Shown: positions 1-8,217, counted from the stretch's first letter. The stretch is 13,882 bases of DNA from Gemmatimonadota bacterium (GCA_036679645.1 JAZDCY010000072.1:1-13882), one strand, 5' to 3'. A program made the numbers and translations. Notes: generated from the sequence alone by a model not told the origin.

Positions 1-353
1 GCCTCGTCCTGGAGGAAGTTGCGGAGGTACTCGCTCGCGTACCGTCGCGAGTTCGTCTTCTCGCGTTCGTCGAATGCGCGCTCCATGGCCCGCAACCGGC
101 GTGCCTTTTGCCGCGCCAGCTCAGGTGCGATGAATCCGTGGCGCGCGACGCGTTCGGTCTCGGTCAGCAGCGCGTTGAGGCCTCGCTCTATTCCCCCTTC
201 ACGAACGCCCGCGTTGAGCGAGAACACCTCGCCGGATCCAACGAAGCGTCCCTGCCCACTACCCGCACCGAGAAAGGGCGGATCGGCTCCCTGTGACAGC
301 TCGAAGAAGCGCGCGTTGAGCATAGCGCTGAACAACGACTCCACTGCATCCTG
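1..353 (-). pseudogene. Out-of-frame continuation of the M16 (PqqL-like) protease, open to the window edge
   Basis: 117 stop-free codons from 353 down to 3 read QDAVESLFSAMLNARFFELSQGADPPFLGAGSGQGRFVGSGEVFSLNAGVREGGIERGLNALLTETERVARHGFIAPELARQKARRLRAMERAFDEREKTNSRRYASEYLRNFLQDE. This resembles the second domain of PqqL-like proteases and joins the upstream frame exactly if one 11-bp repeat copy is removed. Confidence 0.85.
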
Positions 354-1648
354 GCGATACGCAGGCGATACGCAGCGTACGTCGAGTGGTCACGGAGGTC
401 CTGCTTGAAGAGAATGCCAACGCTCGAGCCCGTCGCTTCGGGATCGGTGGCGATCGCGTAGAGTGGCTCCTCGTTGTCGGGGACGTCGAATACGGGACGT
501 TCCCGTGGATCGTCGGGGGGGGCAACCTGCGTGAAGTGTTCTCGAATGAGCGTCTCCACGGTGGCGGCGTCGAAATCTCCAACGGCAATGACTGCCATCA
601 GGTCGGGCCGATACCAGTCACGATAGAACCGCCGAACCGCATCGTGCTCAAACGTCTGGAGAATCTCGGGTTTCCCGATTGGGAGACGTTCCGCGTAACG
701 AGATCCGCCGAATGCGATAGGGAGCTGCTGATCGAGCATACGTTGCCCGGCACCTTGGCCTAGACGCCACTCCTCCATCACCACGCCGCGTTCCTTCTCG
801 ATCTCTTCTCCGTCGAAGGTTACACCGTGCGCCCAGTCTTCGAGAACCTGAAACGCGGTTTCCAGTACACCCGCGGTGTCTGTAGGGACTGTCAGCATGT
901 ACACGGTCTCATCGAAACTCGTGTACGCGTTCAGGTGCGGCCCCATGCGCATTCCGACCAGCTCGAAGTAGCTCACGAGGTCCTGGCGCGCGAAGTGGCG
1001 CGTTCCGTTGAACGCCATGTGCTCGGCAAAGTGCGCGAGCCCCTGTTGATCGTCGTCCTCGAGCACCGATCCCGCCCTGACCACGAGCCGGAGTTCCGCA
1101 CGGTTCTCGGGACGTCCGTTCTGGCGGATGTAGTACCTGATGCCGTTGGTCAGCGTGCCGATCGTGATCTGGGGATCGACCGGCACCGGCGTCGATGGGT
1201 CGTCTTCCTGTGCTTGGAGGGCGGTCGGCAACGCGAGCAGGATCGCGATGGCGAGCCCTCGCTTGAACTGATCGATCTTGCGCCGTTGTTTCTTGGTTGG
1301 CCGTCCCTTCCCGTCGTGGAAGTCGGTAGGCAGTGCCCGCATCTGCTGGGCGAGCTTCTCGCGCGCGGTCTTCGTCATGGCATCCTCCTCATAGAGCGTC
1401 GCTGCGTCCTTTGCCGGGCCACGGCGCTCGGACAGCGCGCGCACCGTGAGTCGGTACTCGTACGGTCCGCGACGCATGCGAATCTGGTCTCCGACGTGAA
1501 TGTGCTTGGCGCGCTTGACGCGTTCGCCGTTCACCTGCACCCGGCCGCCGTCTACTCCGTCTGACGCGAGCGCTCGTGTCTTGAAGAGCCGCGCCGCCCA
1601 GAGCCATCTGTCGAGCCGCACCGACGCGGTGTCGCTCACGGGAATCAC
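188..1648 (-). CDS. hslR: Fusion ORF: Hsp15/HslR ribosome-associated S4-domain protein (aa 1-130) + signal-peptide-like segment (aa 131-146) + N-terminal part of a PqqL-like M16 zinc protease; the last ~60 codons are out of frame after a frameshift near 353-375
   Basis: The N-terminus VRLDRWLWAARLFKTRALA...GGRVQVNG...RRGPAKDAATLYEE...RPTKKQRR matches Hsp15. It continues with no stop into GLAIAILLALPTALQA-QEDD and then GTLTNGIRYYIR...GSVLEDDDQQGLAHFAEHMAFNGT (HxxEH)...NAYTSFDETVY...EKERGVVMEEWR...FYRDWYRPDLMAVIAVGD. The GTG start overlaps the upstream TGA (GTGA, 1645-1648). The symbol applies to the N-terminal domain only. Confidence 0.9.
   Translation of the reverse strand: MIPVSDTASVRLDRWLWAARLFKTRALASDGVDGGRVQVNGERVKRAKHIHVGDQIRMRRGPYEYRLTVRALSERRGPAKDAATLYEEDAMTKTAREKLAQQMRALPTDFHDGKGRPTKKQRRKIDQFKRGLAIAILLALPTALQAQEDDPSTPVPVDPQITIGTLTNGIRYYIRQNGRPENRAELRLVVRAGSVLEDDDQQGLAHFAEHMAFNGTRHFARQDLVSYFELVGMRMGPHLNAYTSFDETVYMLTVPTDTAGVLETAFQVLEDWAHGVTFDGEEIEKERGVVMEEWRLGQGAGQRMLDQQLPIAFGGSRYAERLPIGKPEILQTFEHDAVRRFYRDWYRPDLMAVIAVGDFDAATVETLIREHFTQVAPPDDPRERPVFDVPDNEEPLYAIATDPEATGSSVGILFKQDLRDHSTYAAYRLRIARMQWSRCSALCSTRASSSCHREPIRPFSVRVVGRDASLDPARCSRSTRAFVKGE
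353..375. repeat. Perfect 11-bp tandem duplication (GGCGATACGCA x2) at the frameshift point
   Basis: 353-363 and 364-374 are identical, followed by G at 375. Confidence 0.95.
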
Positions 1649-2376
1649 CGCAGCGGCCGCGCCAAGGTATCATTGTGTCGCTGAATCAGAGACCGCAGGT
1701 AGGTGCTGATGGTTCCCACGCTCTCGAACCCGGCGGCGCGCGCAGCCACCTCCTGGCGCTCTACGGACACCGTATCCGAGGCAGCGAAACTGGGGAGGCT
1801 TTCGTGGACGCCCAGCGTGAAAAGGTCCCAGGCCGCGCCGGCCACCCGTGTGAAGATCATGTTCTGCGGCCGGTCGATTTCCGCTAGGTAGGCGTTTTCC
1901 ATCTCCCGTTCTAGATACAACTCGGCCCGTTTCCCGGGGACCGCGATGAACATCTCGATGTGATACAGCGCGCCGGCCTCCAGCGTCGGACCGAGCACCT
2001 CCGGCGGCGGGCCGCCGGCAAACAACTCCTCGCGCCACGCGGTGAGTGCGGCTGTCCGGGCAGAGAACGCCGCATCGGTCATCCCGCTCCGGGCAGCTGC
2101 GCGCTCCCGCCGGGCAGCTTGGTCGGCACTGTAGTACTCCGCGAAGCTTCCCATGGGGTAGATCAGCATCAGGTCCCAGTGATCGCCCTGGCGGTGCCGG
2201 ATGATCCACGGGCTCCCGCTCCCTCGCCCATCCACGGCGGAGCGCTGCTGGTAGAGGTCGATCAGCGCCGCGAGGTCGCCGGGAGCGGCCCGTACCAGCA
2301 CGGTGCGGTACAGATAGCTGGTATCGGACGGGATGGTGCCCGCGGAGAGCGCGAGCGCAAGAAGGATGTTGATCAT
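1645..2376 (-). CDS. Secreted hypothetical protein with two similar halves (possibly NIPSNAP-like/dimeric alpha-beta barrel)
   Basis: 243-aa ORF with hydrophobic N-terminus MINILLALALSAG. Internal similarity: LYRTVLVRAAPGDLAALIDLY...IIRHRQGDHWDLMLI versus LYHIEMFIAVPGKRAELYLE...IFTRVAGAAWDLFTL. Its stop overlaps the next start. The fold assignment is inference. Confidence 0.75.
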   Translation of the reverse strand: MINILLALALSAGTIPSDTSYLYRTVLVRAAPGDLAALIDLYQQRSAVDGRGSGSPWIIRHRQGDHWDLMLIYPMGSFAEYYSADQAARRERAAARSGMTDAAFSARTAALTAWREELFAGGPPPEVLGPTLEAGALYHIEMFIAVPGKRAELYLEREMENAYLAEIDRPQNMIFTRVAGAAWDLFTLGVHESLPSFAASDTVSVERQEVAARAAGFESVGTISTYLRSLIQRHNDTLARPLR

Positions 2377-2428
2377 GCCTCGAAGGTGCCCTCACCGCAC
2401 CCGCCGCCGCAACCGCTCGACAGGTGCG

Positions 2429-2434
2429 TATCTT
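2429..2434 (+). promoter_or_regulatory. Possible -10 element (TATCTT) for the plus-strand operon; very short or leaderless-type 5' end
   Basis: TAnnnT hexamer in the 67-bp divergent spacer, 9 nt before ATG 2444, which has no Shine-Dalgarno sequence. Confidence 0.35.
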
Positions 2435-2443
2435 TCGCGGCCC

Positions 2444-3322
2444 ATGGACGTCGCGCTCGTCACCTGTGCCGCGCTTCCGGGCCTCGCGCCCGACGACCGC
2501 CTGCTGCTCGATGCGCTCACTGCCTGCGGCTGCGCGGCGGAACCAGTGGTGTGGGAAGACCCACACTTCGACTGGGCCGTGCCGCGGGTCTCGGTTGTCC
2601 GGTCGGCGTGGGACTATGCGTATCGGCGCGCGGCGTTCCTCGAGTGGGCGCGCGGCGCGGCAGGCCGTACGGCGCTCTGGAACCCGCTCCCGGTAGTCGA
2701 GTGGAACACCCACAAGGCATACCTCGCCGACCTCGAACGGGAAGGCGTACCGGTCGTGCCGACGCGCATGTTCCGTGCAGGCGAGCGAGCGCGGCTCGTT
2801 GATGTGATCCGCGAAGAGAGGTGGGACGCTGTCATTCTCAAGGCCGCGGTCGCGCAGACCGGCCGCTATCTCCGGCATGTGGCCGGCGACCGGATTGCGG
2901 AGGGGCAGGACCACCTCGATCGGCTCTTGCCGTACGAGGACATGTTGGTCCAGGAGTACATCCCGGCTGTGACCACGTCGGGAGAGATATCGATCGTATT
3001 CATCGACGGCGCCTTCTCGCACGCAGTTCGAAAGGAGCCCGCCCGGGGAGACTTTCGCGTCCACCACGACTTCGGCGGCATCGTCCGCGGCGAAGCGCCT
3101 ACCGACATGGAACTCGCGGTCGCCGTGGCGGCGGTCGGTGCCGTGCCGTTCTCGCTGATGTACGCACGGGTAGACCTGGTGCAGCGCAACGACGGCACGC
3201 CGTGCGTCATGGAACTCGAATTGGTCGAACCAGAACTGTTCTTTCGGTGCGAGCCGGAGGCCGCGCCGCGGCTTGCGGGCGCGATAGCTGCACGCATCAG
3301 CGAAGCCGGAGTCAGGCGATGA
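2444..3322 (+). CDS. ATP-grasp ligase (RimK/glutathione synthetase-like, DcsG-like family)
   Basis: VVRSAWDY, WNPLPVVEWNTHKAYLADL, MLVQEYI, GEISIVFIDGAFSHAVRK, GDFRV..FGG, YARVDLV, MELELVEPELF. The start is placed at MDVALVT (2444) because the longer ORF overlaps the divergent gene. Confidence 0.85.
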   Translation: MDVALVTCAALPGLAPDDRLLLDALTACGCAAEPVVWEDPHFDWAVPRVSVVRSAWDYAYRRAAFLEWARGAAGRTALWNPLPVVEWNTHKAYLADLEREGVPVVPTRMFRAGERARLVDVIREERWDAVILKAAVAQTGRYLRHVAGDRIAEGQDHLDRLLPYEDMLVQEYIPAVTTSGEISIVFIDGAFSHAVRKEPARGDFRVHHDFGGIVRGEAPTDMELAVAVAAVGAVPFSLMYARVDLVQRNDGTPCVMELELVEPELFFRCEPEAAPRLAGAIAARISEAGVRR

Positions 3323-3933: not shown

Positions 3934-4058
3934 TGGGGGCGATTGAAGGGGCGATGAGAGACGATGCTTGGTCGCGCGACCAAACCCCGGGCGTGAGCCC
4001 GGGGTTAAGGGCGATGGAAGGGCCGAGAGTTACTCGCGCGACCAAACCCCGGACGTGA
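3933..4058 (+). other. 41-codon mini-ORF bridging the sco stop and the probable PCuAC start
   Basis: ATG 3933 overlaps the sco TGA (TGATG). It reads MGAIEGAMRDDAWSRDQTPGVSPGLRAMEGPRVTRATKPRT, and its TGA (4056-4058) overlaps GTG 4055. Whether it is translated is unknown. Confidence 0.35.
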
Positions 4059-4078
4059 GCCCGGGGTTTAGGCGCTGG
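3968..4078. repeat. Two ~45-bp direct repeats (62-bp period), each containing a GC-rich hairpin with a GTGA tetraloop (REP-like)
   Basis: TCGCGCGACCAAACCCCGG(G/A)CGTGAGCCCGGGGTT begins at 3972 and at 4034. The stem AACCCCGGGC/GCCCGGGGTT spans 3983-4006. A perfect 16-bp palindrome TTGGTCGCGCGACCAA spans 3968-3983. Confidence 0.9.
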
Positions 4079-4543: not shown

Positions 4544-5379
4544 CCTGGTGGTGCTCGGCGCAGGGGATCCCGTGGACGTGGGAGTGGCGTGCCTACCCGG
4601 GGATTTGGTTGTTCGTGCTGACGCTGGCGGGCGCCTACACCTGGACGCTGCGGCGCTGGGAGCCGCGGTTGCGGGCTCGCGACGAGGGGCCGACCACACG
4701 GCGTGAGATTGCGTTGTTCGCCACCGGCGTGCTGGTGCTATGGGTGGCCGCCGATTGGCCCCTCGGGACCCTGGCCGCGGGGTACCTGCTGTCCGCTCGC
4801 GTGTTGCAGTACCTGCTGTTCGCGCTGGTGGCACCGCCGTTGTTGCTTCTTGGAACGCCGCGGTGGCTGCTCCGGCGGCTCCTGAGAGGACGGGCGGCGT
4901 TTCGCATCGCGCGGCTGCTGACGCGACCTTTGATCCCGTTGCTGGTGTACAACTCCGTTCTCGTCGCCGTTCATCTCCCCACGGTGGTGGACGGCGTCAG
5001 CGGGTCGCAGTTGGGCTCGTTCGTCCTGGACCTGACGGTTATCGCCTCGGGTCTCGTTCTCTGGTGGCCTGCTCTTGGCCGGCTGCCTGAACTCAAGCCC
5101 ATGGGTTATCCCGGCCGGATTGGATACCTGCTTCTGAGCGTCTTTGTCCCCACCGTTCCCGCCTCGTTCTTCACGTTTGCCCGATACCCGATCTACTCGC
5201 TCTATGAGTCGGCGCCACCGATCGGCTGGATCGACACGGTCACCGATCAGCAGATCGGCGGCCTGCTCATGAAGCTCGGCGGCGGGTTGGTGTTGTTTGG
5301 CACGATGTCGGTGATGTTCTTCCGGTGGCATTCGGCCGAAGAGAGGGCCGAGCACAAGATAAAGGAGGTCGTGACATGA
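4540..5379 (+). CDS. ctaG: Cytochrome c oxidase caa3 assembly factor (CtaG-like) membrane protein, divergent
   Basis: TTG overlaps the upstream stop (TTGA). Multi-TM protein with LVAPPLLLLGTP, VHLP, LWWP, PIYSLY and DQQIGGLLMK. It lies next to sco and PCuAC. Confidence 0.85.
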   Translation: MTWWCSAQGIPWTWEWRAYPGIWLFVLTLAGAYTWTLRRWEPRLRARDEGPTTRREIALFATGVLVLWVAADWPLGTLAAGYLLSARVLQYLLFALVAPPLLLLGTPRWLLRRLLRGRAAFRIARLLTRPLIPLLVYNSVLVAVHLPTVVDGVSGSQLGSFVLDLTVIASGLVLWWPALGRLPELKPMGYPGRIGYLLLSVFVPTVPASFFTFARYPIYSLYESAPPIGWIDTVTDQQIGGLLMKLGGGLVLFGTMSVMFFRWHSAEERAEHKIKEVVT

Positions 5380-6746
5380 AGCGTTTCGTGGTCGCGCTGG
5401 CGGCTGTCGTTCTCGCTCCGGGGCTCGTGCAGAGTCAGGACCAGAGACTGGCCGTGCCGTACGCGCGATTCGTGTTGCCCAATGGGTTGAACGTCATCCT
5501 GCATGAGGATCACACGACGCCCACCGTAAGCGTCAATCTGTGGTACAACGTGGGCTCGGGTCGTGAGAAGCCCGGCCGCACGGGCTTCGCCCACCTGTTC
5601 GAGCACATCCTGTTCGAGGGATCGGAGAACGTGCCGGAGGGCGCATTCGACGAGTGGTTGGAAGCCGCCGGCGGCAGCAACAACGGCTCTACCAACTCCG
5701 ACCGGACCAACTACTGGGAGAATGTGCCGAGCAACGCGTTAGCGCTGGCACTGTTTCTCGAGTCGGACCGCATGGGCCATCTACTGGGCTCCTTGTCTGC
5801 CGAGACGGTCGACGGGCAACGTGACGTGGTGAAGAACGAGCGTCGCCAGTCGTACGAGAATCGGCCGTATGGCATGGCGTTTCTAACGCTCGACTCGGCC
5901 ATGTACACTGCCGATCACCCGTACAGTTGGCCCACGATCGGCTCGATGGAAGATCTGACCGCTGCGTCGCATGAGGATGTCGTGGATTTCTTCCAGAACT
6001 ACTACACGCCCGCCAATGCCAGCCTGTCAATCGCCGGCGATATTGACATTCCAGCGACGCGGCGCCTGGTGGAGCACTGGTTCAGTGATGTCGAGGGACG
6101 CCCGTCCCCCATGCCGATCGATGCGCCTGTCGCGGTGTTGACCACGGAAAAGCGGATGGTGCTCGAGGATCGCGTGCAGCTTCCGCGACTCTACATGTGC
6201 TGGCTGACGCCGCCAATCTACACGCCCGGCGATGCGGAGATGGATGTCGTGGGTGGCGTGTTGGCCGACGGTAAGACATCACGTCTGTACCGGCGGCTCG
6301 TGTACGATATGCAGATTGCGCAGGACGTGTTCGCCTTCCAGGGCTCGGGTTCTCTGTCGTCACAGTTCTGCATCATCTCCACAGCGCGTTCGGGGCACGA
6401 CCTCAGCGAGGTCGAGACGGTGATCCAGGAAGAGATCAACCGGTTGAAGGACGAGCCGCCCACCGATCGCGAGGTGCAGCGTGTGATCAACGGCTATGAG
6501 TCCTCGTTCCTCGACCGGCTGGAGCGCGTCGGCGGGTTCGGTGGCAAGGCAGACCAGCTCAACGCGTATTACACACGTACGGGCAATCCTGACTGGTTCA
6601 ACGAGGATCTCTCGCGTTACATGTCGATCTCGCCAAACGACGTGCGCGCGACGGTCCAAACGTTCCTGGATGAGGGGCGAGTCGTGTTGAGTATAGTGCC
6701 GCGCGGCAAGCCCGAATTGGCAGCCACGAAGACAACCACCGACTGA
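5376..6746 (+). CDS. M16B (pitrilysin-family) zinc protease, catalytic subunit, exported
   Basis: AAGGAGGT Shine-Dalgarno and ATGA overlap. Signal peptide MKRFVVALAAVVLAPGLVQS-Q. Motifs LPNGLNVILHED, GRTGFAHLFEH (HxxEH), NGSTNSDRTNY, LESDRM, QRDVVKNERRQ and HPYSWPTIG. Confidence 0.95.
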   Translation: MKRFVVALAAVVLAPGLVQSQDQRLAVPYARFVLPNGLNVILHEDHTTPTVSVNLWYNVGSGREKPGRTGFAHLFEHILFEGSENVPEGAFDEWLEAAGGSNNGSTNSDRTNYWENVPSNALALALFLESDRMGHLLGSLSAETVDGQRDVVKNERRQSYENRPYGMAFLTLDSAMYTADHPYSWPTIGSMEDLTAASHEDVVDFFQNYYTPANASLSIAGDIDIPATRRLVEHWFSDVEGRPSPMPIDAPVAVLTTEKRMVLEDRVQLPRLYMCWLTPPIYTPGDAEMDVVGGVLADGKTSRLYRRLVYDMQIAQDVFAFQGSGSLSSQFCIISTARSGHDLSEVETVIQEEINRLKDEPPTDREVQRVINGYESSFLDRLERVGGFGGKADQLNAYYTRTGNPDWFNEDLSRYMSISPNDVRATVQTFLDEGRVVLSIVPRGKPELAATKTTTD

Positions 6747-6762
6747 CCGAGGAGAGCGAACG

Positions 6763-8217
6763 ATGAAGACGAAGAGATGCCTGCTCGCGGCGGTGGCGCT
6801 CGCGATCACCGCTCCGACACTGGCCGCGCAGGCCCCCGACCGGAGTCACCCACCCGACTTGGGTCCTCCGCCCACGCTGAGCCTTCCCGCCATCACAGAT
6901 CACACGTTGCCGAACGGCCTGCGTATCATCTACATGGCGAAGCAGAGCGTTCCCCTGGTTCAGATCAACATCGTGATCAAGACCGGGTCGGTCATGGATC
7001 CGGACGATCTGCCGGGCCTCGCCGGCGTGACGGCGGCGATGCTCGATGAGGGCGCCGGCGGACGGGACGCGCTCGAGTTCTCGGAAGCCATCGACTTTCT
7101 CGGTGCGAGCATCCGGGTGAGCAGCGGCTTGCATTTGACCACCATCTCACTCCATGCCCCCGTTGCCCGACTCGACGCCGCCATGGAGTTGCTTGCGGAT
7201 GTCGTGCTGCGGCCGGCTTTCTCTGCGGAGGAGCTGGACCGACTACGGCGACAGCGGTTGACGCAACTCGTTCAGTGGCATGACGAGCCGCGCGCCATCG
7301 CCAGCGCGATCTACAACCGCACTCTGTTTGGCGAGGATCACCCGTACGGCCGCTCGTCGTTCGGTACCGCACAGAGTCTCACGAACGTGTCGGCGGATGA
7401 CCTGCGTGCCTTCCACAGCACCTATTTCGTGCCGGCGAACGCGGCGGTCGTGATCGTGGGCGACATTGCCGAGGAAGAGGCGTTGACGCGGCTGCGTGCC
7501 GCGTTTGGCTCGTGGACGGGCGGCGATGTGGGCGAGGTCCGCGTGGACCGGGTCCGTCAGGTGCGGGGCCGCGAGGTGATCCTGGTCGATAAACCCGAGG
7601 CGGCGCAGTCGGTCATTCGGATTGGGCGCATCGGGGCCGCACGGGATACGGACGATTACTACGCGCTGGTCGTCATGAACACGATCCTCGGCGGATCGTT
7701 CGCGTCACGCCTGAACCAGAAGCTGCGTGAGGAAAAGGGGTATACCTACGGCGCGCGGTCGAGGTTTTCCTTCCGTCCCACGGCGGGTCCCTTCACCGCG
7801 TCCGCCGACGTGCAGACGGCGGTGACGGACTCGGCACTCTACGAGTTCATGTATGAACTGCGCGGGATTCTCGAAGACGTCACGGACGAAGAGATGACAC
7901 GTGCAAGGAACTTCGTCGCCCTGCGTTTCCCGTCCGGCATGCAGGCGGTCTCGCAGATTGCAGGTGGCATCGAAACGCTGTACGAGTATGATCTCCCGCT
8001 CGACTACTACAACACGTACATCCAGAGTATCCTCTCGGTCACGAAAGATGACGTGATGCGTGTGGCGCGAGAGTACATCGACCCGGACAATATCTCCATC
8101 ATAATCGTCGGCGATCGGAGCGTGATCGAGGATAGTGTGCGCGCGCTGAATCTGGGAGAGATTCGGGTGATGTCGGTGGAGGATGTGCTGGGTCCGCCTC
8201 CGGAGATTCGTGAGTGA
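6763..8217 (+). CDS. M16B protease non-catalytic partner subunit, exported
   Basis: Signal peptide ending LAA-Q. TLPNGLRI present; HxxEH is replaced by GLAGVTAAMLDEG. The C-terminal NTILGGSFASRLNQKLREEKGYTYGARS carries the R/Y pair typical of M16B heterodimer partners. Confidence 0.93.
   Translation: MKTKRCLLAAVALAITAPTLAAQAPDRSHPPDLGPPPTLSLPAITDHTLPNGLRIIYMAKQSVPLVQINIVIKTGSVMDPDDLPGLAGVTAAMLDEGAGGRDALEFSEAIDFLGASIRVSSGLHLTTISLHAPVARLDAAMELLADVVLRPAFSAEELDRLRRQRLTQLVQWHDEPRAIASAIYNRTLFGEDHPYGRSSFGTAQSLTNVSADDLRAFHSTYFVPANAAVVIVGDIAEEEALTRLRAAFGSWTGGDVGEVRVDRVRQVRGREVILVDKPEAAQSVIRIGRIGAARDTDDYYALVVMNTILGGSFASRLNQKLREEKGYTYGARSRFSFRPTAGPFTASADVQTAVTDSALYEFMYELRGILEDVTDEEMTRARNFVALRFPSGMQAVSQIAGGIETLYEYDLPLDYYNTYIQSILSVTKDDVMRVAREYIDPDNISIIIVGDRSVIEDSVRALNLGEIRVMSVEDVLGPPPEIRE

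Follow-up and report, generated by a model that had tools for sequence, protein, structure and literature searches.

Here, we present an analysis of a 13,882-nt stretch of DNA from a Gemmatimonadota bacterium (GCA_036679645.1, JAZDCY010000072.1:1-13882; hereafter, the window), in which the gene for Hsp15 (HslR) runs in frame into a gene for a PqqL-like M16 zinc protease. We propose, with a probability of roughly 0.55, that this one gene has two starts: an internal start would give an exported protease, and a long form would be cut by signal peptidase I and then by RseP, which would free cytoplasmic Hsp15. The proposal is built on sequence comparisons that involve the following features of the window.

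1645..2376, minus strand: gene of 243 aa adjoining the fused gene, without Pfam or NCBIfam family, with an N-terminal hydrophobic stretch; genus g1 only.
1639, minus strand: likely GTG start of Hsp15, with an SD-like GGTGAT just upstream (SD energy −7.4).
1259..1639, minus strand: Hsp15 (HslR) part of the fused gene, without stop codon (NCBIfam PRK10348, aa 7-131).
1481..1621, minus strand: S4 RNA-binding domain (Pfam PF01479, aa 10-56).
1384..1390, minus strand: internal Shine-Dalgarno (SD) sequence GAGGAGG, coded by Glu87-Glu88-Asp89 (from sequence, conservation and a duplex energy of −11.5).
1376..1378, minus strand: in-frame ATG (M91), where the protease precursor is predicted to start, giving it an n-region of 40 residues (from ATG/GTG conservation and an S4-less copy).
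1303-1259, minus strand: Hsp15 helix α5, RPTKKQRRKIDQFKR (aa 116-130), also the basic n-region of the signal (from the E. coli Hsp15 alignment and conservation in 37 clusters).
1211..1258, minus strand: h- and c-regions of the predicted signal peptide (aa 131-146), with the predicted signal peptidase I cut between A146 and Q147 (from the conserved motif and likeness to the N-terminal signals of unfused orthologues).
1..1210, minus strand: N-terminal half of the PqqL-like M16 zinc protease, running off the contig end (Pfam and the relative P0001); Peptidase_M16 at aa 177-294 and M16_C at aa 333-426 of the fused ORF (Pfam).
1019..1033, minus strand: HxxEH zinc motif HFAEH (aa 206-210), seen in the sequence and as HFxEHMAF in 37/37 clusters.
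353..374: 11-bp tandem duplication that frameshifts the protease.

A preliminary description of this DNA had reported that Hsp15 is joined in frame to an M16 protease, and this was confirmed by an independent assembly, by 37 protein clusters and by occurrence in two genera. The minus-strand ORF comprises 486 codons (188-1648). GTG at 1648 and the 1621-1624 region offer alternative starts for the Hsp15 part; a contig of X4 lacks one base at 1643, which argues against a start at 1648. The ORF ends at 188 because the 11-bp duplication shifts the frame; the contig stops before the second half of the protease, which is absent from the assembly. The duplication is an assembly artefact of the source genome: it is left out in contigs of X1 (depth 105, no other letters), X2, X3 and X4, and both frames around it match the 1059-aa relative P0001. 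Because only the source assembly has it, the 486-aa public protein record is a frameshifted artefact. A pseudogene caused by this frameshift was rejected for the same reason and because the relatives are intact; separately, the TGA that was flagged in G187 proved to be the regular stop.

The Logan contig of run X1 spans positions 1-2400 and differs from the window solely by 11 bases fewer at 353. Being unchanged across the junction, it indicates that the junction is right, with X1, possibly the source sample, counting as an independent assembly and not as an independent sample. Related strains likewise have contigs that read through the junction with no gap (X3, 1188-1338; X4, 792-1841), and those of X4, X5 and X6 have no indel over 1180-1440. 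Thus, the inspection of sequencing data that had been recommended for the junction found no indel there in contigs of X1, X3, X4, X5 and X6, and a misjoin or indel was rejected based on the X1 and related-strain contigs. Codon 130, CGA in the window, is CGC, CGG, CAC, GAC or GGC in relatives; this variation argues against stop loss in one genome and agrees with the earlier statement that a simple stop loss at codon 130 is insufficient to explain the fusion.

When the first 150 residues of a full-length relative served as the query, 36 long proteins were retrieved, 34 of them with S4, M16 and M16_C, and a second search gave 56 matches, 36 of them fused; the fused proteins from both searches form 37 clusters, the window's own included. 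PF28601 is also listed on fused proteins. The 20 longer Hsp15 matches without M16 look like over-long start calls, read-through or singletons. In P0099, Hsp15 stands behind a Macro domain and in P0102 behind a phosphoribosyltransferase domain, both being singletons and possibly gene-calling artefacts. P0089, P0091, P0094, P0096, P0097 and P0100 have a similar 130-residue N-terminal extension before Hsp15 with no Pfam match, and this extension appears to stem from a start called too far upstream, across a gene on the other strand.

Of 401 genomes drawn from the family, 372 gave a match, and in 10 the match spanned the junction, a distribution at odds with a deletion in one genome as the source of the fusion. 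The fusion is present in 3/3 genomes of genus g1 and 7/7 of genus g76, two Gemmatimonadales genera; in a phylum-wide sample, 3/401 genomes matched the junction query, all from g1 or g76, and the record titles of the fused loci are Gemmatimonadales or Gemmatimonadota. The carriers belong to one group of bacteria from sediment and soil that are uncultured. Most carrier genomes, the source genome among them, have no Hsp15 copy besides the fused gene (it is the only Hsp15 match in G000, G002 and G083); G250 carries a stand-alone match in addition, and in G187 there is a fragment at a contig end.

The fused hslR lies opposite an ATP-grasp gene and near SCO1; in G084 and G089, this place beside the ATP-grasp gene is taken by a stand-alone hslR. 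An hslR directly before an unfused protease, which a pre-fusion operon would show, was not seen, and G084 and G089 have no protease in the 10-12 kb examined. The unfused protease orthologues have ordinary N-terminal signals ending in AQ, and one of these nearly matches a fused junction. We infer that a protease gene landed behind a resident hslR and that, through a deletion, the FKR tail became connected with the protease signal at its n/h boundary. None of our tests supports the previously suggested functional link of ribosome rescue to envelope proteolysis; in close relatives, hslR is retained at this locus with no protease attached.

Several other elements surround the fusion. The gene at 1645-2376 (minus strand) lies between the ATP-grasp gene and the fusion, shares 60-88% identity within g1, and its stop overlaps a GTG of the fused frame. 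A two-gene M16 protease pair with signal-like N-termini (5325-8217, plus strand) lies at a distance of 4 kb, with SCO1 and PCu(A)C copper genes between the pair and the fusion; G001 and G002 show synteny for this pair. Between SCO1 and PCu(A)C, a REP-like repeat of 54 nt that contains a palindrome is present twice (3957-4075), and a stretch similar to this repeat appears in a C45 translation. Heat-shock control was rejected, since no CIRCE-like site was found within 400 nt upstream in 15/15 fused loci; no sigma-70-like promoter or terminator was found in window positions 1200-2500. No RNA data set was found to contain this DNA, which counts neither for nor against its expression.

The N-terminal part of the fused protein has the organization of Hsp15, i.e., an S4 domain followed by long helices 4 and 5. 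Residues 7-128 of E. coli Hsp15 align to the fused ORF, and the match to PDB 1dm9 has an E value of 6e-27. The PRK10348 score of 100.6 bits is below the curated cut-off of 148 bits; because the stand-alone copy of G084 (94.8 bits) also misses this cut-off and only 1/14 control genomes passes it, the cut-off is narrow. With contact residues taken from PMC9757039 and bioRxiv 10.64898/2026.04.23.720132, the E. coli ribosome-contact residues R10, K13, R19, K22, R24 and K44 are present in 37/37 clusters, R42 in 35/37, and R115 and R126 (as R/K) in 36/37, while R28 is found in 0/37 fused and also in 0/58 stand-alone relatives. Helix α5 was located by the pattern KKQRR, which all 37 clusters matched. 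According to the same preprint, α5 of E. coli Hsp15 sits in the 30S mRNA channel, and the residues used there are conserved in the fused clusters. Thus, the fused protein shares the S4 domain, helices 4 and 5 and the ribosome-contact residues with E. coli Hsp15 (PDB 1dm9, 8ap4 and 30qz); it differs from it in having α5 run into the h-region of a signal, in carrying an internal start in helix 4, and in lacking a free C-terminus after α5, as none of the fused loci has a stop there.

For 15 fused loci taken together, we obtained a dN/dS of 0.20 in the S4 part; helices 4-5 and the protease each gave 0.24, and the h- and c-regions 0.48. Close pairs have a pN/pS of 0.05-0.24 in the S4 part. Judged from these ratios, the S4 part is under purifying selection, and the dN/dS of 0.20 argues that the stretch upstream of the internal start is translated and useful. 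The genomic setting differs from that in E. coli: among five genomes (G000, G001, G002, G083 and G084; 89-96% complete), RqcH (NFACT) was found in none and HrpA was over the cut-off in none. All five genomes have an Hsp15 with a long C-terminal helix despite neither protein being over the cut-off.

Helix α5 (RPTKKQRRKIDQFKR) continues in frame and without a stop into GLAIAILLALPTALQA-QEDD (aa 131-147). The position of α5 directly before the h-region supports the earlier proposal that the basic tail of Hsp15 stands in the place of a signal n-region. In 34 clusters, the signal-like stretch has at most one charge, lies 30-33 residues from the RP motif and ends in a cleavage-like site with A (33) or G (1) at −1, Q at +1 (34/34) and P at −6 (30/34). 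The resemblance of LQA-Q to the ends of the signals in other M16 genes, also pointed out before, holds, as the two others in the window end in VQS-Q and LAA-Q and the site is conserved in 34/34 clusters. The Q-rule is restricted to Bacteroidetes by the paper that describes it (PMC5837995), and for this reason we used a motif count in the source genome instead, comparing the frequency of a home-made signal motif with Q at +1 near ORF starts with that deep inside non-membrane ORFs. This motif, which combines the Sec/signal peptidase I features of a basic n-region, an uncharged h-region and a small −1 residue, was 33-fold enriched near ORF starts (178 in 136935 residues versus 24 in 616630, with many of the 24 being true signals behind over-long ORF starts) and is present in 37/37 fused clusters. 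The signal would be N-terminal only in the predicted M91 form, and is internal in the long form. The genome encodes signal peptidase I and four M50 proteases, one of which is RseP-sized.

Full-length fused relatives have 1050-1070 aa and a two-half mature enzyme of about 910 aa. The motifs HFxEHMAF and ERxVxxEE, i.e., HxxEH and the downstream Glu, are present in 37/37 clusters, and P0001 (aa 153-1044) matches PDB 9ldy with E 9e-179 and PqqL (6ofs) with E 9e-73. In its mature length, HxxEH plus Glu and predicted cleavable signal, the protease resembles PqqL/FusC-type M16 enzymes (PDB 6ofs and 9ldy; PMC6793856); it differs from them in that the n-region of its signal is the tail of Hsp15. E. coli PqqL is described as periplasmic, with its signal removed and with a narrow specificity, and its gene lies in an iron-regulated operon with a TonB-dependent transporter (PMC6793856).

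The preliminary description stated that the protease has no start codon of its own at the junction. We found none at the junction either; however, a strong one lies 40 codons upstream (M91, with the SD at 1390-1384). Codons 87-91 (GAG GAG GAT GCC ATG) in helix 4 of Hsp15 form a perfect SD sequence, a 5-nt spacer and an ATG. In 15 distinct fused loci, codon 91 is ATG (12) or GTG (3), while ATG, GTG or TTG is found in 0/81 stand-alone loci, in which the only Val is GTC; GGAGG precedes codon 91 in 14/15 fused versus 24/81 stand-alone loci. These counts are not independent, because all fused loci fall in a single clade, for which the tree shows about two switches between M and V. For the stand-alone set, 64 of 145 rows without an alignable YEED-type motif were dropped, mostly Alphaproteobacteria and fragments, and the 81 rows kept include many near-identical soil sequences. 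In the source genome, GGAGG stands before only 203 of 29625 internal in-frame ATG or GTG codons. Based on duplex energies against a generic anti-SD, the internal SD pairs more strongly than the best upstream start in 15/15 loci (−11.5 versus −7.4 in the window). At the protein level, codon 91 is M (21) or V (12) in 33/37 clusters and never L or I; the same absence of L and I is seen in one other column among the 23 with variable Met. X4 differs from the window at 30/261 bases, none of which is at 1376-1390. Taken alone, two further observations are weak, i.e., all three Val loci use GTG (4/20 background Val columns are also all-GTG), and E88 is all-GAG (as are 4/15 invariant Glu columns). Synonymous conservation was not raised around codon 91 in the 15 fused loci, nor upstream of it as might be expected of an internal promoter. 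Altogether, the SD and start codon are conserved beyond what the protein level needs among loci that are kin and not independent.

An S4-less copy of the gene in G001 (G001:C7; L032 330-3479) also bears on this start. Its likeness to the fused gene begins 19 codons before M91, and it keeps the SD and ATG; one other ATG, five codons upstream of M91, has no SD. Its protease is intact over 970 codons, with a pN/pS of 0.22 against the window and 33.5 synonymous versus 13.5 non-synonymous branch-specific changes. G001 also carries a complete fused copy. The S4-less copy is nearer to the window (81% over 325 aa) than to the complete copy of its own genome (67%), and about 180 nt of unrelated DNA separate the upstream membrane-protein gene from the Hsp15 remnant; from these sequences, it could represent a transfer, a rearrangement or a mis-binned contig.

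Four clusters (P0031-P0034; protein sequences only) have S or A at codon 91 and an intact signal, and the Hsp15 tree places them on a separate branch (SH-like 97). As they are fused without M or V at this codon, the internal start is not required for the fusion. This tree position suggests that the fusion came first and acted through the long form, with the nested start arising later in one branch. We infer that the internal start arose from an EED-coded SD that was already present; GAGGAGGA is already found in 21/53 stand-alone EED loci.

These observations modify the view of the gene product as a polyprotein. The fusion is real and lineage-wide and its cleavage-like site is conserved, in agreement with that view; however, the in-frame start at codon 91 is also conserved, and for this reason the gene probably does not encode a single polyprotein. 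According to the two-start model, the strong internal start would yield most of the protease, as a precursor with Hsp15 helices 4-5 as its n-region, which at 40 residues is long for a signal. The weaker upstream start would yield the long form. With codons 91-130 belonging to both products in the same frame, any stop regained by hslR would also destroy the protease; as there is no conserved frameshift exit either, Hsp15 can come from no product other than the long form. In the long form, the basic tail would hold Hsp15 on the cytoplasmic side, and signal peptidase I would cut between A146 and Q147. Finally, and this is the weakest step, RseP would cut the 16-residue uncharged remnant to give Hsp15 with a few extra residues, and α5 could then enter the ribosome. 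We prefer this release because an anchor directly after α5 fits the mRNA-channel position poorly; with RqcH and HrpA not found, the rescue pathway may differ from that of E. coli, and the structural argument is one by analogy. The features of an RIP substrate, i.e., a cytoplasmic domain, one hydrophobic segment and an S2P in the genome, are present. There are also precedents for the steps: RseP is reported to remove signal peptides and to free an active cytoplasmic FecR fragment (PMC8144685), signal peptidase to cut RsiV behind its cytoplasmic domain (PMC4183432), and S2P to turn signal peptides into pheromones (PMC10202637).

A rather unlikely alternative, and the one closest to the original polyprotein idea, is that a single cut by signal peptidase I leaves Hsp15 on an inner-membrane tether, from which it would rescue translocon-stuck ribosomes. 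The conserved cleavage-like site fits this idea, as do the four clusters that keep the signal without M or V at codon 91. It is also in line with a slow, membrane-localised sub-population of Hsp15 described in E. coli (bioRxiv 10.64898/2026.04.23.720132), and the disorder reported for Hsp15 on the 50S after about residue 103-107 (PMC9757039; bioRxiv 10.64898/2026.04.23.720132) would leave some slack. However, the internal start is conserved in 33/37 clusters, the remaining 16 uncharged residues are short for a stable anchor, and there is no linker after α5. Moreover, the α5 residues of the mRNA channel are conserved, and a C-terminal HaloTag on E. coli Hsp15 is reported to slow its release, with a longer ribosome dwell (bioRxiv 10.64898/2026.04.23.720132). 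By analogy, a lasting tether of Hsp15 to the membrane is hard to reconcile with recent structures.

It is quite improbable, in our view, that the long form stays uncut in the cytoplasm and binds 50S-peptidyl-tRNA as an Hsp15-guided protease that clears stuck nascent chains, with only the short form being exported. An internal start would be expected if the long form were poorly exported, C-terminally tagged E. coli Hsp15 is reported to still bind ribosomes (PMC9757039; bioRxiv 10.64898/2026.04.23.720132), and the lack of RqcH and HrpA hits in 5/5 genomes leaves room for a downstream rescue step. However, G084, one of these five genomes, has a stand-alone hslR, the four clusters without M or V keep an intact signal, and a 100-kDa domain directly after α5 clashes with the mRNA-channel position. 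In addition, PqqL-type enzymes are periplasmic and of narrow specificity in E. coli (PMC6793856), and an AlphaFold2 model (pTM 0.74) has a confident Hsp15 core and protease as two domains with low-confidence linkers (aa 104-119 and 130-145).

That the S4 part is vestigial and the gene acts only as a protease from the internal start is very unlikely, since, even if G001:C7 has lost S4 and stays intact, the dN/dS and pN/pS of the S4 part are low, the contact residues are kept in 37/37 clusters, the fused gene is mostly the sole Hsp15 copy, and G001 keeps a complete fused copy next to the S4-less one. Equally hard to credit is a release of Hsp15, with a clean C-terminus, through programmed frameshifting or an early stop close to the junction, as across 15 loci the first +1-frame stop lies 1 to 97 codons after the junction, the first −1-frame stop lies 40 to 471 codons away or is missing from the available stretch, and no conserved synonymous block is present at the junction.

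For the preferred model of two starts and release by RseP, the parts are known, i.e., in-frame proteoforms with different locations and cascades of signal peptidase and S2P; their combination with Hsp15 was found nowhere in the literature searched. Nested in-frame starts such as those of lambda C/Nu3 give two products from one frame. In hepatitis C core-E1, the end of the RNA-binding core protein is the signal of E1, and core is freed by signal peptidase and an intramembrane protease; unlike the fusion, this is a eukaryotic virus and has no nested start. In bacteria, ClpB, InfB, SpeA and PagC are described as having in-frame N-terminal proteoforms with different locations (PMC11005335), which likewise derive from one frame and two starts and differ in location or amount. 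In these cases, as described, the short form loses a signal or anchor, whereas the predicted short form of the fusion keeps the signal and drops the cytoplasmic domain. The fusion also resembles RsiV (cut by signal peptidase and then RasP; PMC4183432) and FecR (cut by RseP; PMC8144685) in its cytoplasmic N-terminal domain, single hydrophobic segment, signal peptidase I-like site and exported C-terminal part. However, its N-terminal domain is Hsp15 and not a sigma regulator: RsiV and FecR are signal-regulated sigma regulators, whereas the two housekeeping proteins joined in the fusion are unrelated and nothing indicates that their cleavage is regulated. In a full-text literature search, with subscription papers mostly outside its scope, we found no description of the Hsp15-signal-protease combination. 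Because the listed fused proteins are mostly named zinc protease or insulinase, their Hsp15 part is hidden, creating an annotation blind spot.

If our model is correct, the fusion would be a chromosomal bacterial case of a folded, working cytoplasmic protein that serves as the front end of an export signal, and the arrangement would be locked by the 40 codons shared between two in-frame products. It also provides a natural test of how long or folded the n-region of a signal can be, of whether RseP can make a working protein from a signal remnant, and of the C-terminal extension that helix α5 of Hsp15 tolerates. More doubtfully, the long form may be an Hsp15-guided protease, or the supply of Hsp15 may be set by Sec, signal peptidase and RseP, so that the rescue route would be tied to the export machinery while the nested start gives an ordinary periplasmic protease. 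If either were true, the fusion would represent a new ribosome-rescue route in a lineage without RqcH or HrpA.
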